Origin: a virus
Reading direction: 5' to 3' (one strand)
Length of the DNA stretch: 64,000 nt
Virus record (IMG/VR): IMGVR_UViG_3300025141_013870
Coordinates: 54,249 to 118,248 of that record
A program made the position numbers and the translations under genes. Below, in pieces: positions 36,540-57,871 of this stretch; the first letter of the stretch is position 1; every line of letters starts with the position of its first letter. The notes beneath the pieces were generated by a model, which worked only from the letters and a program-made list of their open reading frames with translations, did no database searches and was not told the DNA's origin.

Positions 36540-36557
36540 ACGATATTTTTTTAAAAT
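36530..36557 (+). promoter_or_regulatory. Putative TGTAWW-N16-TAnnnT promoter
   Basis: TGTATC-N16-TAAAAT. Confidence 0.4.
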
Positions 36558-36580
36558 GATATTATCTTTAAGGGAAAGCT

Positions 36581-37045: not shown

Positions 37046-37088
37046 AATACTTTGGGTAGATGAGATATTTATTTGTGTGGAGCGATTC

Positions 37089-38975
37089 ATGAAAGTCATC
37101 GTTAATAGAAATGCATTAGAAACAGCTATCAAAAGCATGGTCGAGTCTCGAAGCATACAGTCAACAAGTATAGACACTATAGCTGGAGACATAGATGCCG
37201 ACGAAACTGATGAGCCAATACAGGCATCTGACATGATGTCTGTTCAGCTCGCAGTTGATAAGCCCCCTGTTGAAGATCCAGAGTTTGTTCCAACAACCCG
37301 ACAAGCGCTAGGAAGATCAGCATCAGCGATATCTCAAGAGGTTCCAGATGATCAGATAGATTTTTTCTATAGGAAGCTACATGATCTTTTAGATCAATCC
37401 CTAGATAGGCATGATGCTTCTAAATGGGAGGAGCCCACAGTTGAACAGGAAGATGAAGAAGCCGTGGAGGCACAAGATGAAGCCATACCAGAGGAAGAGG
37501 ATTCTATAAGAGAAGCTAAGTTTAGAAAAGCTGTGTCATTAATGCTTGAGGAAGATGATTCTTTTACAGAAGACGAACATGACAAGATAGTTGTTGCCAC
37601 AGAAGAGATAGTAGAATTTCTTGAGTCAATTAAATTTGGATATTCTACTAGAGAAAGAGTTTTAACTGCTGGAGAAATTCAGACATATTTTGCTGATGGT
37701 CTTATGAGACGAGCATTAGACGACATTCTTGATACAAATGATATGCTTCCAGAGATATCGTCAGCTATAGCTGACTTGTCAGATATCGAAAAAGACCGTG
37801 TGCTATCAAATGTAAGGGATCACTACATGAAGCTTTCAAGGTCAATTCCAACTCAGCAAGATGTTGACCAGATAGATGCGAATAAAGAAGTTGACATGGT
37901 TGCAAATTCAATGTTAAAATCTATGTCATCTGACGATGTTGCAAAATTCCTATTAAACAAGGCTAAATCTGAAAAAGATCCCTTAAAGAAAAATGCTTAT
38001 AATAATATAGCAACATTACTCTTGAAGAAGGGCGAGACAGCATTTGTTGATCCTGGGTACTATGGTGAAAAAGAAGAAGAGGAAGCACAATTATCTCCAG
38101 AAGATGCAGCACAAGTTGCACAAGAGAAGCTCGAGAGAGATTTAAAGAAGCTAGATGCTCTTGCAGCTGTCTTCGGTTTCAGCGCAGCAAGCGGGTTTAG
38201 ACAGTGGAGGATGAAATTTCCCGAACCTATTTTTAAAGCTGTCCTTGGATCAGAAGGTGGGATCTCTGAGTATAGAGGATTTTCTAATGAAGTCTATAAA
38301 TCTATGATACTTGCAATGAAAAAGGTGTCTGAGATGGTCGGTCTTCTCGTCGAAGAGGTTGAGGATGATTTAGAAGAAAACCCTGGAGACAAAGATCTTG
38401 AACAGATGGTAGAGGTGCTTCAGAAGATTGATATAGAGTTACTTGAAATTGGAGAGACAGTAACAGAGGATGGCGACTTTGACAGTGAAATGATTCACAA
38501 TACTCTTGGAGGAAAAGTTTTAAAACAGATATTTAGCACTCATTTTTATAAGCCTCCGTTTACTGAGTATGCTAGAACAATTAAAAAACACATGATATCG
38601 TTTCTTACCGGCCAGGGAATAGATCAGAAAACTGCATCAACGTTTGCCAAGATGTTCAACGGAGAGGTTGATCTGCTTCCTTATAATTCTCCAAAAATGC
38701 AAATGAATAAGGTTCGGCTGGGCGGTGTGACGATTCAAATTTATAGAGCTTCGCTAGCAGAGGCACAAAAATTTAATAGAGTATTTTTTGGAAAAGAAAA
38801 TAGAGAAAAAATTAGTGCTAATTTTGAAAAGATGCTAAGAGATCCACAAAAAATCACTCGAGCAATATTTGATTCAATTCCTGATGTATTAGAATGGTCA
38901 TCTACTGAGAGTGAAAATCCCCAATTACAGGTAACTGAAACTCGCATAAGAGATCTTATCTCAGGAATGATTTGA
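37089..38975 (+). CDS. Large acidic hypothetical protein with LRxxI motifs
   Basis: Long ORF (track start 37077); three copies of the recurrent motif. Confidence 0.75.
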   Translation: MKVIVNRNALETAIKSMVESRSIQSTSIDTIAGDIDADETDEPIQASDMMSVQLAVDKPPVEDPEFVPTTRQALGRSASAISQEVPDDQIDFFYRKLHDLLDQSLDRHDASKWEEPTVEQEDEEAVEAQDEAIPEEEDSIREAKFRKAVSLMLEEDDSFTEDEHDKIVVATEEIVEFLESIKFGYSTRERVLTAGEIQTYFADGLMRRALDDILDTNDMLPEISSAIADLSDIEKDRVLSNVRDHYMKLSRSIPTQQDVDQIDANKEVDMVANSMLKSMSSDDVAKFLLNKAKSEKDPLKKNAYNNIATLLLKKGETAFVDPGYYGEKEEEEAQLSPEDAAQVAQEKLERDLKKLDALAAVFGFSAASGFRQWRMKFPEPIFKAVLGSEGGISEYRGFSNEVYKSMILAMKKVSEMVGLLVEEVEDDLEENPGDKDLEQMVEVLQKIDIELLEIGETVTEDGDFDSEMIHNTLGGKVLKQIFSTHFYKPPFTEYARTIKKHMISFLTGQGIDQKTASTFAKMFNGEVDLLPYNSPKMQMNKVRLGGVTIQIYRASLAEAQKFNRVFFGKENREKISANFEKMLRDPQKITRAIFDSIPDVLEWSSTESENPQLQVTETRIRDLISGMI

Positions 38976-39370
38976 TGAAACTAGTAGAGCTACTAGAGAA
39001 ATCACAAGGCACTCAGTTGCCCACGACATCTGTTGGAATGGCTCTAGGAAATTTGCAAACAACGATTCCGGATACTGAACCTCCAATCAAAGCTGAGAGC
39101 TCTGACTGGACCACATTCACAGACCCTGAGAGGATATCTAGAACTTTTAATTTTGATAAATCTAATCATTTGAAATATTTTATCACAGAATTATTATCAT
39201 ACCAGGAAAAAGTTCAGCACCATGCAAAGATTACAATAGAACACGGAAGCGTTAGCGTAGAGACTTATACACATGATATTAACTCTGTTACACAACAAGA
39301 TATATCACTTGCAAAGTTTTGTGACGAGATATATGATGATGTAACTTTTCTTGACTGGTCTAGAAGATGA
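38975..39370 (+). CDS. Pterin-4-alpha-carbinolamine dehydratase family protein with N-terminal extension
   Basis: ISRTFNF, QHHAKI, THDINSVTQQDISLAKFCD. Confidence 0.8.
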   Translation: MKLVELLEKSQGTQLPTTSVGMALGNLQTTIPDTEPPIKAESSDWTTFTDPERISRTFNFDKSNHLKYFITELLSYQEKVQHHAKITIEHGSVSVETYTHDINSVTQQDISLAKFCDEIYDDVTFLDWSRR

Positions 39371-39750
39371 AAGAGATAGAATACGAAAATTCTAAAGTAA
39401 TGATTAGCGACTCTCTGGTAGACAAGATAGATCCCAGACAGTTCTATGATGACCCTGACAAGATAAGCGACTTAACAGTTATTGTCTATTTTGACTCTAC
39501 GTCGCTATCTGCATCAGTTAATAAAATAAAAATATCAAAAAATTTAATTCGTTTAAATTTTGTGTGTGAGTCTAAAGATGTGTGGCCTATAGTCTCTGGA
39601 GAAAAAATTAATAATTTTTCAATTTTAATGAACGATAATGATATAATTTTAAAGGATTATGAAGCGTTTGATATCTTGACAAGATCTGTAGCTGCGACAC
39701 AAGATAGTGTGTATGAATGTGATTTAGTTGTAAAGATGCATAATACATAA
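39367..39750 (+). CDS. Hypothetical protein
   Basis: Coupled ORF (ATGA overlap). Confidence 0.65.
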   Translation: MKEIEYENSKVMISDSLVDKIDPRQFYDDPDKISDLTVIVYFDSTSLSASVNKIKISKNLIRLNFVCESKDVWPIVSGEKINNFSILMNDNDIILKDYEAFDILTRSVAATQDSVYECDLVVKMHNT

Positions 39751-39765
39751 TAATAGAGGTTTAAG

Positions 39766-39945
39766 ATGAAAAATCCCAAGTTTAAGTTTGATAAATTTAT
39801 TGAAGATATTGATAAAAAAGAAAACGAAGGAAGGCAGAGGGTAAAGGACCACGCCGACAGAGATGAATTTCTCCCACAGCGAAGATACAATAGGCTTTAT
39901 AGGGAACATTGGCAAAATTCAACAAGATTTAGAAGTAAAAAATGA
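39766..39945 (+). CDS. 59-aa protein missed by ORF track
   Basis: SD GAGGT; MKNPKFKFDKFIEDIDKKENEGRQRVKDHADRDEFLPQRRYNRLYREHWQNSTRFRSKK; ATGA overlap with next gene. Confidence 0.7.
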   Translation: MKNPKFKFDKFIEDIDKKENEGRQRVKDHADRDEFLPQRRYNRLYREHWQNSTRFRSKK

Positions 39946-40619
39946 GTACAATAAAACTAGATACGTCAGATGATATCGTAACCTTTTTAAGGTTGCTGGC
40001 TGAGGAAAGCGTAAAAGATGCAAAAAAAACGATAGAGTCAGATCCAAAACAAGAATATTTTACTAGCAACATGAACAAAGACAACAAATTTTTTCATTCT
40101 CTTTCTGAACAGCCAGAGGCTGAGGAAGAGACTGAAGGGGAGCCTACAGAGGAAACAGAGGAGGAAGTTGAAGTTGAGGAACCGGAAGGTCCCCCAACAC
40201 TTGAAGTTTCTCTTGACAGTATATCAGATACAATCAAACAACTTAGAAGCGGTCGATCTGTAGATGATAGTAAGGTTAGAGATCAGCTTCGTACTTATTT
40301 TGATAGACTTGACGAGACTGAAAGACAGGCACTTCTTATATTTTTAAGGGCATTTTCTGGAATTTTAACTGGATCTCTACAAGGGGATGATGCTCCTGAT
40401 CCTGGAGATCCTCCATCGAGTATAACTATGGGTTCTGGCTCTGATGAAGTAGAAGAAGTCGAAGAAGAGGTTGAGGAAGAGTCTGGTGAGGAGACAGAAG
40501 AGGAAGGATTCGAAGAAGAGGAAGAAGAGGAAGAAGATACAACGCCGCCGATAAAAGCTGGTGAACCAGCTGAGCTTGCAGAAATAAGAAAGCGAGTCCG
40601 AGCGTTAATGATAAAATAG
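39942..40619 (+). CDS. Highly acidic hypothetical protein (head core/scaffold-like)
   Basis: Two poly-Glu tracts; LAEES and LSEQ motifs. Confidence 0.7.
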   Translation: MSTIKLDTSDDIVTFLRLLAEESVKDAKKTIESDPKQEYFTSNMNKDNKFFHSLSEQPEAEEETEGEPTEETEEEVEVEEPEGPPTLEVSLDSISDTIKQLRSGRSVDDSKVRDQLRTYFDRLDETERQALLIFLRAFSGILTGSLQGDDAPDPGDPPSSITMGSGSDEVEEVEEEVEEESGEETEEEGFEEEEEEEEDTTPPIKAGEPAELAEIRKRVRALMIK

Positions 40620-40622
40620 ACG

Positions 40623-40650
40623 TGTATTTTTAGTTATTTTTTGATAGAAT
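40623..40650 (+). promoter_or_regulatory. Putative TGTAWW-N16-TAnnnT promoter
   Basis: TGTATT-N16-TAGAAT, ATG 6 nt downstream. Confidence 0.5.
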
Positions 40651-40656
40651 ATATAC

Positions 40657-40917
40657 ATGGAAAAAAGAATAATAAAGCTACCAAAGGGTGGAGATCTTGA
40701 GGTCGATATGACTCCAAGGTTTTTAGATATTATCAAAGAGTATTTTGATCTCGATAGTACTGAGTCTATTACAGATGATCAAATTAGGATGTTTGTATAT
40801 GGAAGCACAAAGTCTGCTTTAGATACTGTTCCAGAGCATGGGTATGTTCCCGTACCAGGCCCTCTAGACGGTTTGGATGAGGACATAGATGCTGTTTCAG
40901 ATGAGCCTTTGAAATAG
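40657..40917 (+). CDS. Hypothetical protein
   Basis: 86-aa ORF after promoter-like motif. Confidence 0.7.
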   Translation: MEKRIIKLPKGGDLEVDMTPRFLDIIKEYFDLDSTESITDDQIRMFVYGSTKSALDTVPEHGYVPVPGPLDGLDEDIDAVSDEPLK

Positions 40918-40951
40918 AGATATCCTTTGTCATCATTTAGATTTTAAAATG

Positions 40952-40959
40952 ATATTTAT
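40952..40959 (+). promoter_or_regulatory. Putative late promoter motif
   Basis: ATATTTAT ahead of the NTase operon. Confidence 0.45.
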
Positions 40960-40974
40960 AATCAAGGATTTTAA

Positions 40975-42030
40975 ATGTTCGCCATGTCTTTATCTGAATT
41001 TCTTTTTGACAAGGATGCAGCTGTCCTTTTTGAGGGAGGGCTTAAGCTACCCGTCAACCAGAGGCATAGGCTAGCAGAGCTTACTCCTGACGTTGCAGAT
41101 CAAGCTATAAAGATATATGAGGATTTAATTAATAGGTGGAATGGATATCTTATCTCTATTGGAGAAGAACCCGTTAAAGCGCTTAGACCAACAGGTTCAG
41201 TTAGCTATTACCAGCTTGATATCTCGCAGAGCAAAGATAACGTGTATGGCGACATAGATTATCTTGTTGAGTTTCCTTTGGCAGTAGAAGGAAATGAATC
41301 TGAGATAAGGCAAGCAGATAGAAGAGCAGACAAAAAATACACAGAACTATTTATTAATTTTTTAAATACAAAGATGCCTGATATTGTAGATGTAGAAGCA
41401 ACCTTGGAGGGCAGGACACCCATGATGGTGATGATACGTCTGCCAGATAACAAGCTAGTTCAAGTTGATACTGTAAAAACATTTCCTAGATATTCATCTT
41501 GGATGGAGGGGCGCTATACGCCAGAGAGAGGATTAAAAGGATATACAACAGGAAATCTCTATAAGGCACTAGGGGACTACCTAGTAATGTCAATTGGAAC
41601 AGAAGGTGTAATAGTTAGATCAAAGATGGGTCAAAGAGTCCAGTCTAAGTTTTCACGAAGTAAAGGAGTCGAAACATCAAGCATTAGTCTTGATATAAGA
41701 AACTTTCTAAGAGATATAGCTAGATATATCATAGGATCCGATGACATAGAAGAAGACCCGCTTTTGACAAAAAATCCAGGAGTAGATCCTGTAAACGTGA
41801 AAATATCTGGAATTGCACGTGGAATCAAGGGTCTTGCAAGAACACTAGGGAAGTACGGTGTGTACGATACAGATGATATGCTAAGAGAGATTCACTCCAG
41901 CTATGTGGAAAATGTAAGAAAAAACATAGAAAATAAATTGAACAAGGGATTAGACGAGACAGCTTATCAAAAACTGTTACAGCTAAATGATCATGTGGCA
42001 GCTATAGTAAAGAAAGAGTTTGGTATTTAA
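40975..42030 (+). CDS. Pol-beta-superfamily nucleotidyltransferase
   Basis: TGSV..GDID (GS + DxD) and third Asp in LVQVD; LFEGG after short N-terminal peptide. Confidence 0.65.
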   Translation: MFAMSLSEFLFDKDAAVLFEGGLKLPVNQRHRLAELTPDVADQAIKIYEDLINRWNGYLISIGEEPVKALRPTGSVSYYQLDISQSKDNVYGDIDYLVEFPLAVEGNESEIRQADRRADKKYTELFINFLNTKMPDIVDVEATLEGRTPMMVMIRLPDNKLVQVDTVKTFPRYSSWMEGRYTPERGLKGYTTGNLYKALGDYLVMSIGTEGVIVRSKMGQRVQSKFSRSKGVETSSISLDIRNFLRDIARYIIGSDDIEEDPLLTKNPGVDPVNVKISGIARGIKGLARTLGKYGVYDTDDMLREIHSSYVENVRKNIENKLNKGLDETAYQKLLQLNDHVAAIVKKEFGI

Positions 42031-42682
42031 CGTGGATTATTTTATTTCAGATATACATTTTGGTCATAAGAACATTATAAGACTTTGTGACAGGCCGTTT
42101 AGTTCTGTTTCAGAGATGAATAGCGAGATTATTAAAAAATGGAATTCAATAGTCACAGATGCAGATAGGGTTTTTGTTGTAGGAGATGTTTTTTTGTGCC
42201 CTCTATTAGAGGTAAAGTCGTATATGAAAGAACTGAACGGGTACAAGATTCTCATAAAAGGTAACCATGATTTATCAAAATCAATGATGCTAGAGGCGGG
42301 ATTTGATGAATACCATAGGAGCTATGATTATACGATGCCAGATGGAAGAGTTGCACTTCTAAAGCATTATCCTGTTCCTGACTGCCTACTAGATATGTAT
42401 GATTTAATGATACACGGACACATACATATATCAAAGAGGCTACGAGGCAAGAAGATTAATGTGAGCTGTGATATATGGGATTTTACGCCTATAGGTGTAG
42501 ATGTTTTAAACGAGATGGATACGCGATCTATTTGCAAGGATGATTCAGAATTTGTTGAGGTATCTTTAGATGATGATAAAATGTTAACAATGAATGTAAA
42601 AATACCGATGCTTGATGTCTCAGGATTCATTGATCATATGTATAGACAAATGAATGGGAAGTGGCCGCGGAGTAGAGAATGA
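42020..42682 (+). CDS. Calcineurin-like metallophosphoesterase
   Basis: SDIHFGH, VGD, KGNHD, HYP, HGHIH; start may be GTG 42032. Confidence 0.88.
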   Translation: MVFNVDYFISDIHFGHKNIIRLCDRPFSSVSEMNSEIIKKWNSIVTDADRVFVVGDVFLCPLLEVKSYMKELNGYKILIKGNHDLSKSMMLEAGFDEYHRSYDYTMPDGRVALLKHYPVPDCLLDMYDLMIHGHIHISKRLRGKKINVSCDIWDFTPIGVDVLNEMDTRSICKDDSEFVEVSLDDDKMLTMNVKIPMLDVSGFIDHMYRQMNGKWPRSRE

Positions 42683-43482
42683 AATTAGGATTATTTGGCG
42701 GAGGATTCAAACCATTCACAACTGGTCACTTTGCTAAATTAGCAAATGCAATAAGAGATAATGATAAGGTTTATCTATTCTACGGAATTCAGGAAAGGAA
42801 GCCTCCAAAAATTGGAAAAAGAGGAAAGCCCCTAAAGTCCCAGCAAAAATTTAGACCCATAGGAGATAGTGGAAGATTCTATACGCCAGAGATATCTAGA
42901 GAAATTTTCGCCATATATGAGAGAGCAATTGAAAGAGAGCTTCCAATGGTAGAGGTTGAATCTACAATAGGCAGCACGCCTATGAGAAGAGTGTTTGAAA
43001 TTATTGAAGAGTTTGTAGAAAATCCAGAGATGTATGAGAAGGTTACAATCTACGGAGCTGGAGACACTATTAGAGAGTATCTTAGAAAGCTACCATACTT
43101 TGGAGATCTTATAGAGACTGGAAAGGTACAGCTAGGATCGATATCTCCGGAATCTGCAAATGATTATCTTGATGAAGAGAGGCTCGTGGATATAATAGGT
43201 CAAAGTGAAGAAAGTGCATTGTCATCTTTAGGTTCGTATTATCCAGACGCTTCACAAGAGGACATAGAAAGAATGCAGAGAATAAGGGGCACAGAGGTTA
43301 GGGATATTGCATCAACAAAATCAGGAATCGAAGAGGCAAAGAGATTCCTACCGCCATTTTTAAATAATGATGAGAAGCAGCAGGTGATAAATCTATTACT
43401 AGGAGAAATTTCACCTCCACAGGATCAAGCGCTATCTGAGCTTTATTTGAGAAGTTTTATAAGAGGGATTATAAGAGGTTGA
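42679..43482 (+). CDS. HxGH-superfamily (cytidylyl/adenylyltransferase-like) nucleotidyltransferase
   Basis: FGGGFKPFTTGHF; IRGTEVRD as KMSKS-equivalent loop. Confidence 0.7.
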   Translation: MKLGLFGGGFKPFTTGHFAKLANAIRDNDKVYLFYGIQERKPPKIGKRGKPLKSQQKFRPIGDSGRFYTPEISREIFAIYERAIERELPMVEVESTIGSTPMRRVFEIIEEFVENPEMYEKVTIYGAGDTIREYLRKLPYFGDLIETGKVQLGSISPESANDYLDEERLVDIIGQSEESALSSLGSYYPDASQEDIERMQRIRGTEVRDIASTKSGIEEAKRFLPPFLNNDEKQQVINLLLGEISPPQDQALSELYLRSFIRGIIRG

Positions 43483-43483
43483 T

Positions 43484-46400
43484 GTGGCTATAATTTTAAC
43501 ACCAGATATGATTGCGAGAGCATCTCATAAGTTTACTGCAAAGAAGTTTATAACAGAACAGGATGAGCCAGATCTTACAAAACATATCTGGCATTTTTAT
43601 GAAGATTTTGAGATGCCTCTCTCTGAGCTATTTGAATTAATTGATGCAGCAAAGGCGGGTGAGCTGCAAGACGTAGAGGAAAAACTAGATGGACAAAACA
43701 TAACCTTTACAGTTAGAGACGGAACTCTTCTCTTCTTTAATAAGGGCGGCAGTGGCCAGGGAAAAGATAGATCGGGAGTAATGTCTCACCCAGTCGAGAG
43801 CGTGAGAAATGCTTTTATTAAAGCATATGACGCAATTGAAGAGATAGCAATTCCTAGTGACGACCCTAGCAGGTGGCAGAACCTTTTTCAAAATGGTGCT
43901 GTGATGATTGAGAGTGCGATTCTCACGCCTGAAAATCCTAATACAATAGTATATGACACTCCTTCGATAAGATTTATCAAGACGTCTACGAGCAGTCCAG
44001 ATGTAAATTTAGCATTTTCTGAGTTTAAGTCTGTTGCAGACTCAACTGTTAATGAAGAGTTTTATATGGGACCAGTTCCCTATCTTAATCTAAAGGCATC
44101 TCTCGAAGCAACTGATCAGGAAGCGGATGACATCAAAGGAAATCTTTCACAATTAGTCTTTAGTTACGGAGTCTCTACGCAAGGGACAGTTGGAAATCTT
44201 ATTCACGCCATGGTTAGAATAAGATTAGAGAAGAGTGGCTTAGTTCCAGATTCTTTATTAGATCTAGCAGCTACACGAGTTTCGACTGGAAGAGGACCAA
44301 TAGGAAGAATGTTTCCAAAAATTGCTGGAAAAGATGCATGGGTAACATTTCAAACAGAGGTACTTAATAATAGGCAATCCTACCTTGCGGAATCTATAAT
44401 CCCTCTAGAGAGAATAATTCAAAGAGTTGGGTCCTTAGCATTTAGAAATCTTGAATTTACTCTTGAGGCAGGAAATAGAGATGATCTGATTCAGCAGGTA
44501 GCTGATACTAAAAGAGCATTTGAAGGTGGACACATACTCGCTAGCCCAAAGCAACTGGAAGGAATCAGAGTAGCTCTAGATAGGATAGGCATGTCATCAG
44601 CTGATGACATGGACAATAGATTTAGTAGAGCGACTGAAGGGATAGTCTTCCAGTGGAAGGGAAAGACAAGAAAGCTAACTGGTCTCTTTACACCTATTAA
44701 TAAGCTTAGGGGATTCTTCGCTTACGGAGAAAACAAGGCAACAATACAAGAGCCTGTCACTCCTAATGCACTACAAGAAGCTATTAGAAAAAATTTAAAT
44801 ATGCTTTTATTCGAAGGCGGTAATGCATTTAAATATCCAGACGGAACGAATGTAACAAGGCAAGAGAGAATACCACGTTCAGAGGTTGAACCAATCGTCT
44901 CAAATTTTGTGAAAGACATTCTTGAACCACTAGGAATGGATCATATAGGAGTAGGAACAACTGTGACTGATACCCCTGATGTCGGAGATGTTGATGTAGT
45001 AGTTAGTGCAAATAATTCTAGAAGCCTCTATTCTCAGTTGTCAGCTCATCCTGAATTACAGAGAGAGCTTTCTGAAGCCCCGGGTATAAATAGACTTTAT
45101 TCACTCCCCGGCGGTGCGGGAATCGCAGTATTATATAAAGTTCCATCTACAGGTGATCTGGTTCAGGTAGATGTAATGCCAAGCAAAGGTGTCGATCTTG
45201 AACATATTTCGTGGATGCTAGCAGGAGCTTCTGCAGGCGGTGCAAAGTCACGATATAAAAACATACTTCTATCATGGATAGCAAAAAACAAGAGTGAAAA
45301 AGAGTCAGCAGAGACTGGCCAGAATATTAAATACACATACGCGCGAGGGCTTTTGAAAAAGATAGACGGTATTCCAGAGCAAGGCGGTAGAGTTACTGAT
45401 CCTGATGTCTTTTTACCTATGTTAGGTATCACTGCATCAAAGGGTGCAGTAAGATCATTTGAAGGACTTGTTGATGAGATGAGAAAAGATACCTTCCTCA
45501 GTTCAATATTACCAAAATATAGAGAGTATCTTAATAATACAAGTCATCTATTAAGTCCAGACCCTAGGAGAGCAGCTGAGGCTGAGGAAGCTATGAGATA
45601 TATAGAAGGAGGATCTATGGATGAAGTATTTAGAAATATAATAAAACATCTTTTAGAAGAGGGAGAACAAATAAATTTATTTCCAGATACCGGCACACCT
45701 GATGGATCAGGAAAAGAAAGAATTGACTACAGGTGGCTTAATGACAACTCTGTAGAAGATCCATTATATGACCACGCTTCTAAAAAGCTTTATCCCGCTG
45801 GGTATGCTGCACTTCTTAAGGGCATGACAAGCGAGAGTGCTGGAAAGGAAAGGGTCGAAGGAGAGAAATTCGAGCATGGAATAATCGAATACGCCAAAGA
45901 GATCGGCGCAGGAAATATGAAACGAGTCGGAGGTCAAGGAGAGGATCTGCAAGGTGTCTCAGGCGCAGTGCAAGGTAGGTCATATGAGCTTAAAAAGACA
46001 AAGGCGTCAACGCCTAATTTAAAACTTAACTCATCATTTCCAAAACCAAAGGAAAAACACTATTATATGTTTGTGACAAATCTTCCAATGATTGATGAGA
46101 TGAAAGTTGGGATGGGGAATTTATCGCAGACAGGAAAAGATTTTGAAACATTTGAGGGAGAGCTTGATGAGTTAAATAGCTTCATTCAGGAAATAAATTA
46201 CTTTTCTAAAGCTTTAAGCGCAACTGAAAGAGAGTCTATAGTTAGACGTACTAAAGATAGACTAGAGATGTCTACAAGACAACAGACGTTGCCTCTTCCT
46301 GATCGTGAAACAAACGTTGTTACAGAGGCAGAAGCCCCTCAGCATAGTGACACAGTCGATAGATTTATTAATCTTATAGATAAAATTGGAAAGAAAAACT

Positions 46401-46909
46401 ATGATGACTACAATGAAAGTGATTCTGAAAGACTTGAAGTAATCAACAGCCTTGAGCATAATGGGAAGGTGTCTTCTGCTGCACTAAAAAGACAAATCAC
46501 AACTAAACTTGACGGATCTAAAAGTCAAACACAGCTTCAAAAAGAACTTACAAAAGTCTTTAGAAATATACTGGGCGATCTTAGATGTTGGGTAGTTCCT
46601 AGCACCGCACTAAGAGTTTCTCTTCTTGCATCTGCATTTAAGGGAGGTGACGGAAAGATATTTGACAAATCCACGGGAAACTTGTTACCCGGAGGAAAGA
46701 AACATATTGAAGAGGAGCTCAGAAATAAATTTGGAGATTTAGATTTAGCAGGCAAGCTAGCTGAGAAAATTTCTCCAGAAATTGTAAACCAAGCGCAGGG
46801 AACAGCGGTAAAGAAAAAGGAGTCTGAGTGGGACATACGATTGGGTCTGTTAAAGGTTAGGGTTAGCTTAAAAATAGAACCCCCTACTGTAAAAGGTGAT
46901 GATGATTAA
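43484..46909 (+). CDS. Multidomain protein: ligase-like adenylyltransferase + Pol-beta NTase + PD-(D/E)xK nuclease-like
   Basis: EEKLDG (K67), EGIVF (E385), KLTG; GTT..GDVD and LVQVD; GEKFE..EDL..YELKK. Confidence 0.6.
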   Translation: MAIILTPDMIARASHKFTAKKFITEQDEPDLTKHIWHFYEDFEMPLSELFELIDAAKAGELQDVEEKLDGQNITFTVRDGTLLFFNKGGSGQGKDRSGVMSHPVESVRNAFIKAYDAIEEIAIPSDDPSRWQNLFQNGAVMIESAILTPENPNTIVYDTPSIRFIKTSTSSPDVNLAFSEFKSVADSTVNEEFYMGPVPYLNLKASLEATDQEADDIKGNLSQLVFSYGVSTQGTVGNLIHAMVRIRLEKSGLVPDSLLDLAATRVSTGRGPIGRMFPKIAGKDAWVTFQTEVLNNRQSYLAESIIPLERIIQRVGSLAFRNLEFTLEAGNRDDLIQQVADTKRAFEGGHILASPKQLEGIRVALDRIGMSSADDMDNRFSRATEGIVFQWKGKTRKLTGLFTPINKLRGFFAYGENKATIQEPVTPNALQEAIRKNLNMLLFEGGNAFKYPDGTNVTRQERIPRSEVEPIVSNFVKDILEPLGMDHIGVGTTVTDTPDVGDVDVVVSANNSRSLYSQLSAHPELQRELSEAPGINRLYSLPGGAGIAVLYKVPSTGDLVQVDVMPSKGVDLEHISWMLAGASAGGAKSRYKNILLSWIAKNKSEKESAETGQNIKYTYARGLLKKIDGIPEQGGRVTDPDVFLPMLGITASKGAVRSFEGLVDEMRKDTFLSSILPKYREYLNNTSHLLSPDPRRAAEAEEAMRYIEGGSMDEVFRNIIKHLLEEGEQINLFPDTGTPDGSGKERIDYRWLNDNSVEDPLYDHASKKLYPAGYAALLKGMTSESAGKERVEGEKFEHGIIEYAKEIGAGNMKRVGGQGEDLQGVSGAVQGRSYELKKTKASTPNLKLNSSFPKPKEKHYYMFVTNLPMIDEMKVGMGNLSQTGKDFETFEGELDELNSFIQEINYFSKALSATERESIVRRTKDRLEMSTRQQTLPLPDRETNVVTEAEAPQHSDTVDRFINLIDKIGKKNYDDYNESDSERLEVINSLEHNGKVSSAALKRQITTKLDGSKSQTQLQKELTKVFRNILGDLRCWVVPSTALRVSLLASAFKGGDGKIFDKSTGNLLPGGKKHIEEELRNKFGDLDLAGKLAEKISPEIVNQAQGTAVKKKESEWDIRLGLLKVRVSLKIEPPTVKGDDD

Positions 46910-46924
46910 TCTGCTTTCTCTTTT

Positions 46925-47197
46925 GTGACAATGTCAACTGAAAAAATATTTGAACAGGTTAGGTTTGTCTCCTCTTATGTGGGTGACTGTGATGACTGGG
47001 TGACAGTTAAGAAACAGGTTATGTTAAATCTGCCGTCAGTGCTAAGAAAGAACTTCTCTACTAGAGATCCTAAAACTAAAGAGCAGTGGTTGAATGATTT
47101 TGAGAAGGAGCTGATTAATTACTATAGGGAGCTAACCGGAGTGACGCTAGTGTTAAGAACCCTTGCTCAGCGGAGAGAGATATTCGATGTCTTATAA
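46925..47197 (+). CDS. Hypothetical protein
   Basis: 90-aa ORF. Confidence 0.7.
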   Translation: MTMSTEKIFEQVRFVSSYVGDCDDWVTVKKQVMLNLPSVLRKNFSTRDPKTKEQWLNDFEKELINYYRELTGVTLVLRTLAQRREIFDVL

Positions 47198-48098
47198 TGA
47201 AGAACTTCTAAAAGAATTTATTCGAAGATCTATTGACAACAGAGTTGATGAGAGAATTAGATCTGATGCTGGAAAGGCTGCCGGAGATGTGCACATAGGT
47301 GCACCAAAGCACACAGCGTTTGGAGATAGGTGGGGATGGCACGGTACTGTTGAGAGATGTCCTGAGCGTGAGTGTGGAATACTTCACACCCTTGGTATGA
47401 CAAAAAGCACGTGGGAGTGGCCTGGAAAGATGAAGAATTTTTTCACAGCGTGGTGGGATCTTGCAACAAGCACAGGCCAAAAGTTTCTTGAAATTTTGGA
47501 GAGCACTGTGAATCCGAGCCCGGGATCTCAAAAGAACTGGGCGTTTCCACGAGTTCAAAAATTCGTAGATAAAGCAACTGGAAAAGGACCGAAAGGAAGA
47601 GCATCGTGGGGATCTTCATATGCCACTGCAAAGCCTAGATCTGGCGGAGATATTACCGGCGGGTCACTCTTTACAGGCGGCGAAGCTGGCATAAAAGAAT
47701 CTCTCAATAAACTCGATCCTCTTCTGGTGAGGTCTTTATTGTCAGAAGCTGCAGGTGACACTGAGTTTATATCGGCATTGACTGGAGATCTTGGTGACAT
47801 CGCTGCATTTGTTAATAATGTGAAAACAGGTCTGGATGTTATAGATACTGTCTCAACATGGAAGGAAAAAGTTGATACTAATGGATCTGTGACAGATCTT
47901 TCGGTTTCTAAAGAGGATCTTAAAGCTGATGATTTAGATGAGGGGCGGCTGATGCAGGAATTAATTGACGATGTTTTGTTGCCTTACATAAGAGAGATGC
48001 TAGATGAGATGCCTGCTGTTCTTTCAAAGATGGGCGTGCCAGATGATATGATGCCTGAGGTAGAACAAATGATAAGCGCTACATCTCAAAAGATTTAA
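47187..48098 (+). CDS. Hypothetical protein with LKEFIR motif (putative virion internal)
   Basis: YNEELLKEFIRRSI; LVRSLLSEA. Confidence 0.7.
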   Translation: MSYNEELLKEFIRRSIDNRVDERIRSDAGKAAGDVHIGAPKHTAFGDRWGWHGTVERCPERECGILHTLGMTKSTWEWPGKMKNFFTAWWDLATSTGQKFLEILESTVNPSPGSQKNWAFPRVQKFVDKATGKGPKGRASWGSSYATAKPRSGGDITGGSLFTGGEAGIKESLNKLDPLLVRSLLSEAAGDTEFISALTGDLGDIAAFVNNVKTGLDVIDTVSTWKEKVDTNGSVTDLSVSKEDLKADDLDEGRLMQELIDDVLLPYIREMLDEMPAVLSKMGVPDDMMPEVEQMISATSQKI

Positions 48099-48112
48099 AT
48101 GATAAACTTATC

Positions 48113-48502
48113 TTGAGTATTGTGTTATCATTAAATGATTCTAGGGAGATGCACATGTCAGATAACTGGATACCAGAAATACTATACGAAGAGGATGAAA
48201 CTGGTGGTTCATCAGCAATTCCTTTTATAATGGTGCCAGACAACGAGACAATGCCACGCTTGTTATATATTTTTGAGAGCCGAGATACTGGTGAATTTGA
48301 ACCTGGAAATGAAGGGGAAGAGCTCCCAGTCGTTCAGTGGGATCTTCATCAATATGCAGATATGGCTATTTTAAAGAGCTCTTTAGAGCCTACTGTATAT
48401 GATATTGTTCGAGACGTTCTTGGATTAGAACCACTAGTGTCAGCAGCTAAAAAGGGTAAAGAAATAACTGATTCAGTCAATAGAAGCGTAAACTCTAATT
48501 AA
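48113..48502 (+). CDS. Hypothetical protein
   Basis: Likely start ATG 48149/48155. Confidence 0.7.
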   Translation: MSIVLSLNDSREMHMSDNWIPEILYEEDETGGSSAIPFIMVPDNETMPRLLYIFESRDTGEFEPGNEGEELPVVQWDLHQYADMAILKSSLEPTVYDIVRDVLGLEPLVSAAKKGKEITDSVNRSVNSN

Positions 48503-48538
48503 TAACACTAAAACGTAAGCAGTTTCTTAATCTTGTTA

Positions 48539-48546
48539 ATAATTAA
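48539..48546 (+). promoter_or_regulatory. Putative late promoter motif
   Basis: ATAATTAA, SD GGAGG, ATG 48571. Confidence 0.4.
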
Positions 48547-48570
48547 ATTATGTGCGGAGGTTTTTAAACC

Positions 48571-49320
48571 ATGAAATTTAATGCAGATAGATTAGGTAAA
48601 TTAGCTGGTTTTCCTGTTACATCGAGAAGATCTCTCAATGAGGCTGGAAACAGAAGTCAGCGAGAAGATCCAGGTGAGCCAGATGATGTGGATTACCGCT
48701 GGGGAAAGAATCAGCTCAACGAAGAAGAAGATTTCCTTACCCTAGACACACCCATCCAGGAAGAAGACGGGTCAGAAGAGGGCGATGAGTCTGATACAGA
48801 TCCTGGCGAAGAGGACTATACCACTAAGAAGGGTAAAAAGAAGAAGACATCTGGGCAAGAACGCGGCACAAAGAAGGGTGATGAAGCAGATGTCAATGAG
48901 ACTTATGGAGAAGATTATCTCTCTCAATCACGCAGAGGCGGATCAGGCGAGATGGCAGATCCTTCTCTAGATTACACTGAGCTTGAAGAGCTTGGAACGA
49001 TGGATTGGAAAGGTGAAGGAGTTGAGGATGAAGTTGACGATGAGGAAAAAGACGAAGCTCCTGTAGAACCGCTGGATGAGATCATGCTGGAGCTTGACGA
49101 GAACATGCTCAGACGTGAGATAGTCAAGATGCGAAGACAGCGTCAGTCACGACTACAGGAATCTCGTCTTCGATCTGCTATTAGAAACGAAATACAAGGT
49201 ATTTTCTCAGAACTCGATCTTTATAAAACTGATAACAAGTGGGTATATGGAGATAAACAGCCTCGAAACAGCAGAGACGGATACGTGAGTCGGGGTTTTC
49301 CAGGTGTTGGATTTAGATAA
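48571..49320 (+). CDS. Acidic hypothetical protein (scaffold-like)
   Basis: RLGKLAG, LNEA/LNEE, LQESRLRSAIRNEI. Confidence 0.7.
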   Translation: MKFNADRLGKLAGFPVTSRRSLNEAGNRSQREDPGEPDDVDYRWGKNQLNEEEDFLTLDTPIQEEDGSEEGDESDTDPGEEDYTTKKGKKKKTSGQERGTKKGDEADVNETYGEDYLSQSRRGGSGEMADPSLDYTELEELGTMDWKGEGVEDEVDDEEKDEAPVEPLDEIMLELDENMLRREIVKMRRQRQSRLQESRLRSAIRNEIQGIFSELDLYKTDNKWVYGDKQPRNSRDGYVSRGFPGVGFR

Positions 49321-49345: not shown

Positions 49346-49374
49346 GTGGGTCGCTTAGTCGACCCACTTTTTTT
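49346..49374 (+). terminator. Rho-independent terminator
   Basis: GTGGGTCG/CGACCCAC 8-bp stem, 6-nt loop, T7 tract. Confidence 0.88.
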
Positions 49375-55590: not shown

Positions 55591-55806
55591 ATGTCACGAG
55601 GCTCTTTAGTTAAATTATCAGAAACAGCTAAGATATCAATTTGTATTGATTCACCTAATGATGTTTGCGGGCTTGTTCTAGGTCTTGTAGATTTTTATGA
55701 TGTTACGGGCATACGTGATCCTAAGCCCGTGTGCTATTCTGTGTTTTTAGAGTCTGGATTGACTGAAACATTTTATGAAGAAGATTTGGAGGTGATCTGT
55801 GAGTAG
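55591..55806 (+). CDS. Small SH3-like hypothetical protein
   Basis: RGSLVK..GLVL..YSVF. Confidence 0.55.
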   Translation: MSRGSLVKLSETAKISICIDSPNDVCGLVLGLVDFYDVTGIRDPKPVCYSVFLESGLTETFYEEDLEVICE

Positions 55807-56269
55807 AAAGATAATAGCTGTTAGCGGCGGATTTGATCCTATTCACGTAGGACATGTGAGAATGATACTAGATGCTGGTACTCATGGAGACGTTATCATT
55901 ATTTTGAATACCGATGAGTGGCTTATGAGAAAGAAAGGATATACATTCATGAACTGGGAGGAGAGGGCTGAGATCCTTCGAAGCATACGTGGAGTTATGA
56001 ATGTCGTTGCTGCAAAAGATGATGATAACACTGTGTGTGAAACTTTGCGAAATCTTAAGGTTGATATTGATCTTAATACATTTGCAAATGGCGGTGATAG
56101 AGTCACGTCAAATACACCTGAGATGGATACATGCAAAGATCTAGGGATCTCATTGTTGTGGAATTGCGGAGGCGGAAAGATTCAGAGCAGTTCATCTCTT
56201 GTTGACACAAGGGTCTGGAGTAAGGATGGCATATGGAACAGATCTACAAAGAAAAAGGACAAAGAGTAG
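55799..56269 (+). CDS. Cytidylyltransferase-like (TagD/RfaE family)
   Basis: SGGFDPIHVGH, FANGGDR, KIQSSS. Confidence 0.88.
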   Translation: MSRKIIAVSGGFDPIHVGHVRMILDAGTHGDVIIILNTDEWLMRKKGYTFMNWEERAEILRSIRGVMNVVAAKDDDNTVCETLRNLKVDIDLNTFANGGDRVTSNTPEMDTCKDLGISLLWNCGGGKIQSSSSLVDTRVWSKDGIWNRSTKKKDKE

Positions 56270-56272
56270 AGA

Positions 56273-57871
56273 ATGTGCGGCTTTTTAACTTACTTTGGTT
56301 ATGACTATGATCTTTTTCAATTGGAAGAGTCGTCTAAGAAAATAAGCTATAGAGGTCCTGATACATCATCATACAAGACAATATCGCCTAATGTTGTGAT
56401 GACATTTCACCGGCTTGCCATAATGGACACATCATCTTTAGGTGATCAGCCTTTGTTTCACCCTGAGGATGCTAGCCTATCCTTGGTGTGCAATGGTGAG
56501 ATCTATAATTATAAAACTTTAATAGATGAGCTTGGGTTTCAAATGAAATCTAATTCTGATTGTGAAGTCATTTTGCATCTTTATAAAAAATACGGTATAG
56601 AAAAAACAGTTGAGATGCTTGATGGAGTTTTTGCATTTACACTATACGATGGAAAAAAGAATATCTTATTTGCATCTAGAGATTCATTTGGTGTGAGGCC
56701 TTCGTTTATAGGATGGGATAACCGCGGTGGCGTTGCGATTGCTAGCGAGATAAAAGCTTTAGTTGATATTTGTGATAAGAGTATAATTCCCTTCCCGCCA
56801 GGATCATGGTGGGCTTCTGACGTTCCTTATGCATTTACAGGGTTTAATGTACATTTTGATAATAAATTTCAAAAGGGCGATGAAAAAGAATTTTGTAAAA
56901 ATATAAAAAATCTTCTAACTAATTCTGTTAAAAAGAGAATGATGTCTGATAGGGAGGTAGGATGCTTGTTATCTGGTGGACTAGATTCCAGCCTGATATC
57001 AGCATTAGTTGCCTCGATGACAGACGACAGAAAAAAATTAAAAACATTTTCAATTGGCATGGAAGGAAGTCCAGACTTAGATCATGCAAAAATAGTTGCA
57101 GATCACATAGGATCTGATCATCACTCAATTCAATTATCTCAACAGGAATTTCTTGATGCTATAGATGTTGTTATTTATAACATCGAATCATATGATACAA
57201 CGACAGTTAGAGCATCAGTGGGAAATTATCTAGTTTCAAAATACATTAGAGAGAACACAGATGTTAAAGTTGTATTTAATGGTGACGGAGCAGATGAGGT
57301 ATGTATGGGATATGTTTATAATAAGCATGCTCCCTCTGTAGATGATTTTTACAATGAGAACATTAAGCTAATTGATGAAATTTATATGTTTGATGTATTA
57401 CGATCAGATAGATGCGTGAGCTCTAATGGACTTGAAGCCCGCACACCATTTCTTGATAAAAAATTTGTAGAATATTATATGTCAATTCCGCCTGAGATGA
57501 AGATGTTCGGTAGCAACAAAAGACCTGAAAAATATCTTTTACGCAAGGCATTTGAAAAATCTAATCTTCTTCCTGATGAAGTTTTGTGGCGTCGCAAGTG
57601 TGCTTTTTCAGATGGTGTGAGCAGTATTGAAAATTCATGGCACAAAACGTTGCAAAAGTTTATAAATTCTCAGGTCACAGATAAAGAGTTTGAGAGAGAA
57701 AGGGCAAAGATCGAGCACTGTTCTCCTATTTTAAAAGAAAGTTACTATTATAGGAAGGTTTTTAAGACGTTTTTTGGAGATAATTCTCATATTATTCCTC
57801 ACTTTTGGATGCCAAATTGGTCAGATACAGTTGATCCTTCTGCTAGAGAGTTATCTGGATATAAAGAATAG
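56273..57871 (+). CDS. asnB: Asparagine synthase (glutamine-hydrolysing)
   Basis: N-terminal MCG, RGPD, CNGEIYN, LSGGLDSS, GDGADE, LEARTPFLD. Confidence 0.93.
   Translation: MCGFLTYFGYDYDLFQLEESSKKISYRGPDTSSYKTISPNVVMTFHRLAIMDTSSLGDQPLFHPEDASLSLVCNGEIYNYKTLIDELGFQMKSNSDCEVILHLYKKYGIEKTVEMLDGVFAFTLYDGKKNILFASRDSFGVRPSFIGWDNRGGVAIASEIKALVDICDKSIIPFPPGSWWASDVPYAFTGFNVHFDNKFQKGDEKEFCKNIKNLLTNSVKKRMMSDREVGCLLSGGLDSSLISALVASMTDDRKKLKTFSIGMEGSPDLDHAKIVADHIGSDHHSIQLSQQEFLDAIDVVIYNIESYDTTTVRASVGNYLVSKYIRENTDVKVVFNGDGADEVCMGYVYNKHAPSVDDFYNENIKLIDEIYMFDVLRSDRCVSSNGLEARTPFLDKKFVEYYMSIPPEMKMFGSNKRPEKYLLRKAFEKSNLLPDEVLWRRKCAFSDGVSSIENSWHKTLQKFINSQVTDKEFERERAKIEHCSPILKESYYYRKVFKTFFGDNSHIIPHFWMPNWSDTVDPSARELSGYKE

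Follow-up and report, generated by a model that had tools for sequence, protein, structure and literature searches.

The window analysed here, a 64,000-nucleotide stretch of DNA, comes from an uncultured marine giant phage whose 118-kb record represents only 37% of the genome. Between 40975 and 46909 on its plus strand lie four co-directional genes, overlapping or abutting as had been claimed in the original prediction. The first, g1 (40975-42030), encodes a family-X-like Pol-beta-fold nucleotidyltransferase of 351 amino acids, about the size of ASFV Pol X; g2 (42020-42682) a calcineurin-like metallophosphoesterase of 220 amino acids; g3 (42679-43482) an NMNAT-like TxGH/RGTxVR nucleotidyltransferase of the cytidylyltransferase-like superfamily with 267 amino acids; and g4 (43484-46909) a protein of 1141 amino acids composed of a ligase-like, a family-X-like and a nuclease-like domain. 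The overlap is 11 nt between g1 and g2 and 4 nt between g2 and g3; g3 and g4 are separated by 1 nt. The g3/g4 split is genuine in this phage population. Three marine DNA runs were compared, one of which may be the source sample; contigs of runs X1 and X2 span the junction without indel, and in run X3 positions 43454-43476, immediately 5′ of it, are uncovered.

The 57-nt spacer upstream of g1 holds a candidate promoter-like element, TTAAAATGATATTTATAAT (40944-40962, plus strand). In the same spacer ATATTTATAAT sits 14 nt 5′ of the g1 ATG; the similar words ATATTTATGAT and ATATTTATATT are found 16-17 nt upstream of g1 in two related contigs (L003 and L004), where ATATTTAT(A/G)A(T) precedes g1 at a similar distance. 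The 13-mer TTAAAATGATATT has one further exact copy, at 36551, upstream of another gene. Neither a generic sigma-70 scan (37 sites vs 27.3 ± 5.1 expected) nor the 10-mer count (23 vs 16.6 expected) was above chance.

The Pol-beta-type nucleotidyltransferase predicted for the first gene was recovered, its catalytic motifs G74-S75, D93xD95 and Q163-V-D165 being invariant in 33 homologues; the protein begins with a tag peptide finishing LFE/GG and ends in a helical extension. A second such domain, also foreseen, occupies residues 446-710 of g4 (44819-45613, plus strand) and is a paralogue of g1 (hhalign probability 80%, E 1.4e-5). For both domains the top fold matches are DNA polymerases of family X, which rank above the CD-NTases and align over a larger part of the domain. 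At the sequence level membership of family X is absent (PF14792, E 0.2), neither an 8-kDa lyase nor a helix-hairpin-helix domain was detected, and g1 and g4 have no match to PF10127 (RlaP) at E up to 1.

That g2 is a calcineurin-like phosphoesterase, as called originally, was reproduced with Pfam Metallophos (PF00149; 24.5 bits, cut-off 21.5) and with phrog_547 (1.8e-43), and its translation shows the motifs DxH, GD, GNHD, H and GHxH. Among solved structures Aquifex aq_1665 (1xm7; E 5e-11) is nearest, and the nearest named family is the ligase-associated PdeM (TIGR04123), to which the match is weak (21.8 bits vs a cut-off of 150).

Residues 30-420 of g4 (43571-44743, plus strand) form the expected KxDG covalent-nucleotidyltransferase domain, in which E66-K67-x-D69-G70-Q71, E385-G386 and K397 are invariant in 28 homologues; positions 43682-43684 (plus strand) encode the active-site lysine, K67. 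Motifs III/IIIa and IV are separated by a helical insert of about 190 residues, and an OB domain is absent behind the core. RNA_ligase is the nearest Pfam family and the only one recurring across the domain (weak matches in 28 of 36 family members), and the family did not match the DNA-ligase Pfam models; BFVD gave weak RNA-ligase fold matches, and the top solved fold match is the adenylation domain of ASFV DNA ligase. The C-terminal residues 745-1141 (45716-46906, plus strand) are the PD-(D/E)xK-like domain of the original prediction, with E797...D821...E835-x-K837 conserved to at least 90% in 15 homologues. The domain resembles RecU and Hjc, which suggests DNA as substrate; about half of the g4 family lacks it. 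For g4, 41 homologue clusters were found; its structure model (pLDDT 73) is of low confidence in the linkers 401-445 and 711-744.

The third gene had been called an HxGH nucleotidyltransferase; its identity as a nucleotidyltransferase stands, the exact motif does not, since g3 has TxGH. The motifs GGFKPFTTGH and RGTEVR are conserved in 30 homologues, and the protein ends in the tail LRSFIRGIIRG. Its best PDB profile matches are NadM NMNAT (2qjo, E 0.028) and PPAT, it matches the NMNAT family phrog_3462 at 1.6e-3, and its atlas neighbours bear PF01467. In five distinct contigs (L007, L008, L016, L017 and L002, the last identical with L005 and counted once) g3 and g4 are one reading frame, and 30 of 37 sampled proteins with the ligase-like domain also bear a NadM-type, NMN-adenylyltransferase-like PF01467 domain (best E 3e-15). 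The strongest feature, near-universal fusion of the HxGH gene with the ligase-like domain, is missing from the original prediction.

The fused HxGH domains of relatives carry the signature GRFQPFHxGH...SGTxxR, and their best NCBIfam matches are models of NadM/archaeal NMNAT (E down to 2e-10), although these matches lie far under the equivalog cut-offs and cover the first 60-70 residues only. They favour a counter-defence based on NAD+ or other nucleotide metabolites, in which the NMNAT-like enzyme would rebuild NAD+ depleted by host NADases, and the KxDG and Pol-beta domains would make or destroy nucleotide signals instead of repairing polymers. The P-loop kinases of some relatives, together with the NMNAT, recall NadR, and NAD+ salvage is known to be encoded by phages (PMC9503650). 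We consider this explanation improbable: the block has no NadV/Nampt partner, the family X matches of the Pol-beta domains beat those to CD-NTases, and salvage alone would leave unexplained why a ligase-like domain almost always accompanies the phage domain, either fused or adjacent. NadM and archaeal NMNAT share with the phage family the (H/T)xGH and SGTxxR-type motifs; a Nudix or NadV partner is missing here.

Synteny in relatives, which the original prediction had anticipated, was found in about 15 diverged phage contigs; the order g1-g2-g3-g4 is shared by L003, L004, L007, L008, L016 and L017, and g3 adjoins g4 in every related locus having g3. Downstream on the plus strand (46925-49320) follow dn1 (46925-47197), an unnamed gene (47163-48098), dn3 (48113-48502) and dn4 (48571-49320), closed by a strong terminator-like hairpin (49346-49367). 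The genes dn1-dn4 are co-conserved with g1-g4 in at least 12 loci, dn1 with identities of 52-76%, higher than those of g4 in every locus; searches of the downstream genes against Pfam, PHROG and PDB gave no match. Among the 37 ligase-like-domain proteins, five contain Zeta_toxin or AAA_33 P-loop kinases. Three relatives (P0270, P0324 and P0341) have a PolyA_pol head of the CCA-adding type and RNA-binding domains (E about 1e-30). The order in P0324 is HxGH, CCA-type enzyme, ligase, and in P0302 HxGH, family-X-like domain, ligase, from which it follows that CCA-type and family-X-like Pol-beta enzymes occupy one slot.

We tentatively propose, at somewhat less than even confidence, that the four genes form a kit that heals, fills and seals broken nucleic-acid ends, most likely of RNA, for example of tRNA that anticodon nucleases or ribotoxins of the host have cleaved. 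First, g2 would strip 2′,3′-cyclic or 3′-phosphates; second, g1 and residues 446-710 of g4 would re-extend the 3′-OH by one or a few nucleotides; third, the KxDG domain would form a Lys67-AMP intermediate and join the 3′-OH to a 5′-phosphate; fourth, the PD-(D/E)xK domain would trim ends. Finally, g3, whose counterparts in most relatives share one polypeptide with the ligase-like domain, would partner the ligase, perhaps by making or regenerating an adenylyl donor, an NAD-type dinucleotide, or by acting on a phosphorylated end. RNA repair, as originally proposed, has partial support. The domain calls were all reproduced and the predicted synteny was found, and comparative support for RNA comes from the weak RNA_ligase matches in 28 of 36 members, the kinase and CCA-adding/poly(A)-polymerase fusions and the RlaP precedent. 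Against an RNA kit we count that neither the operon nor, in a search with AAA_33 (PF13671), the 118-kb record (37% of the genome) yielded a polynucleotide 5′-kinase, that the 64-kb window has no tRNA genes, the family X fold matches, the weak likeness of g2 to PdeM and the RecU/Hjc-like nuclease, as well as the NMNAT-like partner, which to our knowledge no RNA repair system needs.

The closest known RNA repair systems are bacterial Pnkp/Hen1 and T4 Pnkp with Rnl1, in which a 3′-healing phosphoesterase is likewise paired with a KxDG sealing ligase. In Clostridium thermocellum Pnkp a calcineurin-type metallophosphoesterase stands beside a ligase-like adenylyltransferase, and some g4 relatives bear an N-terminal P-loop kinase. 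The coupling of a metallophosphoesterase to a ligase in Pnkp is covered by PMC2190708. In the phage block, however, kinase and Hen1 methyltransferase were not found, the nucleotidyltransferase core of the ligase-like domain is interrupted by the helical insert and followed by no known C-terminal module, and two polymerase-like domains, a nuclease and the NMNAT-like partner are added, the parts being spread over four genes. RlaP enzymes (T4 copy, NrdC.11) are also of Pol-beta fold and genetically tied to RNA ligases; encoded next to these, they extend damaged RNA 3′ ends by 1-2 nucleotides (bioRxiv 10.64898/2025.12.29.696909). They were proposed as an answer to RloC-type nucleases. Unlike RlaP, the phage enzyme lacks PF10127, is nearest to family X in fold, including the fingers (N) subdomain, and is duplicated, one copy being ligase-fused.

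The main rival, which we regard as unlikely, is a DNA gap-filling or end-joining module, BER- or NHEJ-like, in which nuclease and metallophosphoesterase would clean ends, the family-X-like domains fill short gaps and the KxDG domain seal. Its targets could be nicks, gaps or breaks left by restriction or CRISPR in the phage genome as it enters or replicates, or it could mature the lagging strands that the phage's DnaE-type polymerase synthesises; for replication the phage uses Pol III alpha and DnaB. A close known system is viral base-excision repair by ASFV Pol X and ligase, where a minimal family-X-type polymerase stands beside a ligase and end-cleaning enzymes, and g1 aligns over 170 of the 176 residues of Pol X. 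The ASFV ligase fold match, the likeness of g2 to PdeM of a bacterial ligase-associated DNA-damage operon and the RecU/Hjc-like nuclease agree with it. A further DNA ligase was not found in the 118-kb record, which means little in a 37% fragment. In bacterial LigD a polymerase, a phosphoesterase and a ligase are joined in a single polypeptide, but its polymerase (of primase-type fold) and phosphoesterase differ in fold from those of the phage. Unlike the ASFV pair, the phage Pol-beta enzymes lack sequence-level family X membership. The phage ligase core is RNA_ligase-like and is followed by no OB domain, no 8-kDa lyase or helix-hairpin-helix was detected, relatives have CCA-adding/poly(A)-polymerase heads with an RNA-binding domain in place of the family-X-like domain, and the nuclease is missing in about half of the g4 family, all of which argue against DNA.

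The putative head-targeting peptides of the original prediction exist and are conserved. They have the form LRxLI...LxE/GG; IRKNLNMLLFE/GG precedes the family-X-like and FRNIIKHLLEE/G the nuclease domain of g4. Their LxE ends fit the cleavage rule of T4 gp21, the genome has a gene for a gp21-type protease, and distant relatives of the fusion gene adjoin terminase in 59 of 65 loci and portal in 41 of 65. From these sequence features virion delivery is plausible, and the enzymes may act early, upon release from the capsid. T4 Rnl1 has a second, morphogenetic role. Very improbably, the proteins are mainly structural or packaged cargo with repurposed enzyme folds (genome-end protection, DNA modification or, cf. 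T4 gp63, tail-fibre assembly), for which the terminase/portal neighbours and tag-like peptides would also speak; the repair-like domain set would then be coincidence. In all five enzyme domains, however, the catalytic residues are (near-)invariant across hundreds to thousands of clusters, which argues for retained chemistry. Large multi-enzyme strings are also typical of polyvalent virion-packaged effectors (Iyer et al. 2017, PMC5512222) and T4 capsid-targeted internal proteins, and distant relatives here sometimes bear M78 peptidase or ART domains. Unlike polyvalent effectors, the phage proteins show no MuF or portal fusion, and the block lies amid metabolic and replication genes; Iyer et al. 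(2017) report that they observed no association of RNA ligases with the 2H phosphoesterase domains that occur in polyvalent proteins.

We found no paper on the ligase-like/NMNAT-like family, including none that describes the pairing, and only one cultured phage has it. The ligase-like domain occurs in more than 2,300 metagenomic protein clusters, and its pairing with an NAD-synthase-like enzyme is a large, unstudied phage family.

The four co-directional genes g1 to g4, on the plus strand of the window, form a block that reads as a nucleic-acid repair system, in which the coupling of a ligase-like domain with an NMNAT-like enzyme is possibly a new element. They encode a Pol-beta-fold enzyme (g1, 40975-42030), a metallophosphoesterase (g2, 42020-42682), a TxGH nucleotidyltransferase (g3, 42679-43482) and a three-domain protein of 1141 residues (g4, 43484-46909). 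Gene g1 overlaps g2 by 11 nt, g2 overlaps g3 by 4 nt, and 1 nt separates g3 from g4. That the break between g3 and g4 is due to a frameshift or assembly error was considered and ruled out: X1 and X2, two of three marine DNA runs compared, have contigs that bridge the junction without an indel, so that the split is real in the window's population, and the same stop/start arrangement in six relatives also counts against such an error.

The record of 118,248 bp, of which the window is the second half, is 37% complete according to CheckV, from which a genome of roughly 300 kb follows. Almost all genes in the window lie on the plus strand; among them are those for ribonucleotide reductase, DnaB, Pol III alpha, malate synthase, isocitrate lyase, GroEL, DnaK and asparagine synthase. 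The same DNA was found across many marine metagenomes. In a poly(A)-selected metatranscriptome (run X23) a single contig of 665 nt lies inside g4 (45860-46490), one of its ends bearing a template-switch adaptor and the other, at 46490, a poly(A) tail, the rest of the block being uncovered in that run; it is a weak sign, hinting that g4 is transcribed in nature. The late promoter that the original prediction had placed before g1 gained no support: neither a generic promoter scan nor a 10-mer count rose above chance. The word ATATTTATAAT is found in the upstream spacer 14 nt 5' of the g1 start, and two related contigs have similar words about equally far from the start. Two exact copies of the 13-mer TTAAAATGATATT lie in the 64 kb (36551-36563 and 40944-40956), each about 18 nt 5' of a gene start (36581 and 40975), and may be a shared regulatory element.

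From sequence alone the original prediction had read a Pol-beta-type enzyme with GS, DxD and QVD motifs, a calcineurin-like phosphoesterase, an HxGH-type enzyme, a KxDG ligase-like domain and a PD-(D/E)xK-like domain. The motifs behind all five readings are present and conserved in homologues, and the phosphoesterase also has a Pfam score over the cut-off. In the ligase-like domain (residues 30-420 of g4) E-K-x-D-G-Q (motif I), E143 (motif III), E385-G386 (motif IV) and K397 (motif V) are invariant in the alignments A1, A4 and A6. The window copy scores 15.2 bits against PF09414 (RNA_ligase, Rnl2-like), below the gathering threshold of 27; 28 of 36 relatives match this family at E 0.1 or better (best 1.2e-6), and the relative P0037 has a precomputed PF09414 call. 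Sequence-profile searches of the PDB with g4, g1 and the ligase-like domain returned nothing meaningful. Matches to eS6 fall in a helical insert of the domain and look like composition artefacts. A Pfam search gave the window's protein no match to DUF6267, on which no literature was found.

The sequence of g3 contains GGFKPFTTGH and RGTEVR; T14-T15-G16-H17 and R203-G204-T-x-V207-R208, conserved in 30 homologues, correspond to the (H/T)xGH motif and the C-terminal ISSTxxR-type motif, and judged by these motifs g3 belongs to the HxGH superfamily. Its score against PF01467 is 12.3 bits, the threshold being 21. Its likeness to NMNAT and PPAT is consistent but weak, and its similarity to NadM and archaeal NMNAT models is weak and N-terminal only. 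A fold match to a 'cytidyltransferase-like' protein of S-PM2 was rejected as too weak (E 5.5e-3, TM 0.13). The window encodes a second HxGH nucleotidyltransferase (55799-56269) with the canonical motif SGGFDPIHVGH, directly 5' of asparagine synthase (56273-57871; PF00733, E 1e-74).

In every related locus having g3 this gene adjoins g4, and in five distinct contigs (L007, L008, L016, L017 and L002, the last being the same contig as L005 and counted once) the two are one ORF. Of 37 proteins with the ligase-like domain that were sampled outside the window's lineage, 30 also contain PF01467 at E 0.001 or better, several of those listed scoring above 21 bits and up to 33.6. The PF01467 domains of the fused relatives bear the NadM-like signature GRFQPFHxGH...SGTxxR, and the order of domains varies among these proteins. 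The near-obligate fusion of the NMNAT-like and the ligase-like enzyme would imply that their chemistry is coupled.

Clustering at 50% identity divides the family of the ligase-like domain into at least 2,306 clusters. Among its best 150 representatives, a P-loop kinase of Zeta_toxin type stands at the N-terminus of four that were scanned, three of which also match AAA_33 (kinase fusions are present in P0267, P0278 and P0283), and a CCA-adding/poly(A)-polymerase head with its RNA-binding domain is present in three. In P0302 the order is HxGH, family-X-like, ligase; the CCA-type and family-X-like domains therefore occupy one and the same architectural slot. In distant phages the fusion gene adjoins the large terminase in 59 of 65 loci and the portal in 41 of 65. 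Non-jumbo phages with this HxGH-ligase fusion often have, immediately upstream of it, a gene for a fused SbcD-SbcC-like nuclease (phrog_100, phrog_77; L031:2249-5428 and 23 other distant loci); terminase and portal are found downstream. The only cultured carrier among 50,697 GenBank records is the Microcystis phage Mel-JY01, whose gene product of 639 residues, WWT39297.1, is annotated 'cytidylyltransferase like protein'; the other matches of the protein search are two unannotated huge-phage records, and a near-identity DNA search of GenBank phages gave zero matches.

In g1 the residues G74-S75, D93, D95 and D165 are invariant and form the GS loop and the three catalytic carboxylates of a Pol-beta palm; they align with GT, GDVD and QVD of the second such domain, residues 446-710 of g4. 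Both domains have the palm and the fingers (N) subdomain arranged as in Pol beta and ASFV Pol X. Sequence membership in family X was not found: against PF14792 g4 has E 0.2 and 12.3 bits (cut-off 25), g1 has no match, and a sequence-profile search of the PDB with g1 and g4 gave no family X match. Neither Pfam nor fold searches of g1 and g4 446-710 reported 8-kDa dRP-lyase or helix-hairpin-helix domains; some of the fold alignments extend over Pol beta residues from about 94. That the two domains are CD-NTase/cGAS or CCA-adding enzymes are minor rival readings, which score lower and cover the palm only. To RlaP (PF10127) neither g1 nor g4 has a Pfam match at E up to 1.

The metallophosphoesterase g2 scores 24.5 bits against PF00149 (threshold 21.5) and matches phrog_547 at 1.8e-43; the five metal-binding motifs D10xH12, G55-D56, G81-N82-H83-D84, H116 and H132-G-H134 can be read in its translation. 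Against PdeM, the ligase-associated DNA-damage phosphoesterase (TIGR04123), it reaches 21.8 bits with a cut-off of 150. In the C-terminal domain of g4 (residues 745-1141) conservation of E797, D821 and E835-x-K837 is 90% or higher; in the structure model this E...D...ExK signature sits on a helix (792-806) and the strands 822-824 and 833-838 of an alpha-beta-beta-beta core, with weak resemblance to RecU and Hjc. Only about half of the g4 family carries this nuclease domain. C-terminal regions of 400-500 residues in L006, L007, L009, L015 and L016 are unlike it, and the relative in L015 has an insert of 260 residues between the ligase-like and family-X-like domains (L015:9309-10085); Pfam found no families in these alternative regions or in the insert. 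The C-terminal module of the g4 family appears to be swappable.

The synteny in related phages that the original prediction called for is observed: the order up3-up5-up4-up2-up1-g1-g2-g3-g4-dn1-dn3-dn4, where up and dn denote conserved flanking genes, is kept for the most part in contigs whose proteins share 25-80% identity with those of the window, g1 and g2 being absent from some. At 37077-49320 the syntenic unit extends beyond the 40952-46909 originally delimited. Its best-conserved members lie just 3' of g4: dn1 (46925-47197) shows 52-76% identity (64-76% in 10 of its 12 distinct loci) and dn3 (48113-48502) 48-66%, whereas g4 is 28-45% identical. Neither has a relative in Pfam, PHROG or the PDB; they may be partners of the enzymes that have gone unrecognised. 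The conserved upstream part (37077-40917) includes a 632-residue protein without a family and a pterin-4a-carbinolamine dehydratase (38972-39370; PF01329, E 1.8e-16), the only conserved flanking gene to which PHROG and Pfam gave an assignment. A match of the 632-residue protein to STING_LBD is below threshold (15.8 bits versus 27) and probably due to chance.

The set of predicted activities follows the logic of RNA end repair: removal of phosphate, addition of nucleotides at the 3' end, sealing via an adenylyl-lysine, and trimming of ends. The agreement is best when two published systems, similar in part, are set beside it. RlaP, a Pol-beta enzyme found beside RNA ligases, adds one or two nucleotides to damaged RNA (bioRxiv 10.64898/2025.12.29.696909) and has been proposed as an answer to nucleases such as RloC that excise one nucleotide; g1 and g4 have no match to its family. 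Pnkp joins a metallophosphoesterase to a ligase (PMC2190708), but Pnkp-type systems also contain a polynucleotide 5'-kinase, which the operon in the window lacks and some relatives have by fusion. In the 118-kb record there is no AAA_33 match and no ATP-dependent DNA ligase, and the window contains no tRNA genes; such negatives count for little in a record that covers 37% of the genome. What makes us lean towards RNA as the target, with a confidence somewhat short of even, is the affinity to RNA_ligase together with the fusions of relatives to kinases and CCA-type enzymes. The family-X fold of the Pol-beta domains, a nuclease resembling RecU and the slight likeness of g2 to PdeM would instead suit repair of gaps or ends in DNA, which we regard as rather unlikely, though still a serious competitor to RNA repair.

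For the part of the NMNAT-like partner in a scheme of healing, filling and sealing, the simplest idea is that g3 would supply an NAD-type adenylyl donor locally. A bolder idea is that the two enzymes would perform a new ligation chemistry. In one version of it the ligase would be charged from an NAD-type dinucleotide made on the spot by its fused partner; if true, this would be the first NAD-dependent RNA ligase. In another, the HxGH enzyme would adenylylate a phosphorylated end directly and non-covalently.

A further feature of the block may concern delivery. Standalone homologues of g1 start with the conserved peptide M..(L)LRxLIxxxLxE and then GG, also in cases with 75-90 additional residues in between. 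In g4 the peptide IRKNLNMLLFE/GG precedes the family-X-like domain and FRNIIKHLLEE/G, conserved as RxxIRxxLxE, precedes the nuclease domain, both in low-confidence linkers of the model. In L002 a peptide of this type marks the fusion joint, and in L012 one opens the ligase gene; in 115 of 150 distant relatives the ligase-like domain comes after a motif of the form hydrophobic-x-E-(G/N/S/A)-G, most often LLxEGG. The original prediction had assigned a putative head-targeting motif to three of the four genes; g3 ends with the related LRSFIRGIIRG, of LRxxI type and without the LxE-GG end. The T4 prohead protease gp21 cuts after (L/I)xE, the pattern in which the other peptides end, and a gp21-type protease (Peptidase_S77, 88 bits) is encoded in the record upstream of the window (G000:C1:19545-19988). 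A loose N-terminal LRxLI-type pattern is found in 9 of the 58 ORFs of the window, against about 3.9 expected. Amphipathic starts of this type occur on unrelated ORFs, for example ISRKILRSLILRE and SRKNLRMLIHD (ORF starts 16124, 17145, 20353, 34682, 47163 and others). Peptides and protease together fit capsid targeting and processing into separate enzymes. Against taking this as established count the LLLMGG that replaces LxEGG in some relatives and the position of the block among non-structural genes in the window's genome. That everything holds jointly, the NMNAT-like and KxDG enzymes performing a new two-enzyme ligation chemistry in a kit that is cut at LxE-GG by the prohead protease, injected with the DNA and active before phage gene expression, seems to us improbable.

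No paper was found on this ligase-like family or on an NMNAT-ligase fusion; the published surveys consulted cover RlaP, CCA-adding enzymes, Rnl1, Rnl2 and RtcB, and treat NadM and NadR separately. The known systems by which phages counter tRNA- or DNA-cutting nucleases of the host are only a handful (T4 Pnkp/Rnl1, RtcB and, only recently, RlaP). The block would add a fuller tool set from families not named in databases: phosphate removal, re-addition of nucleotides by polymerase-X-like enzymes, sealing and trimming. The enzymes are small, look soluble and have clear active sites, which brings these questions within reach of bench work. The block also exposes a very large phage family, most sampled members of which fuse the ligase-like to the NMNAT-like enzyme, a pairing behind which there could be a novel chemistry of ligation or a coupling of repair to the supply of NAD.
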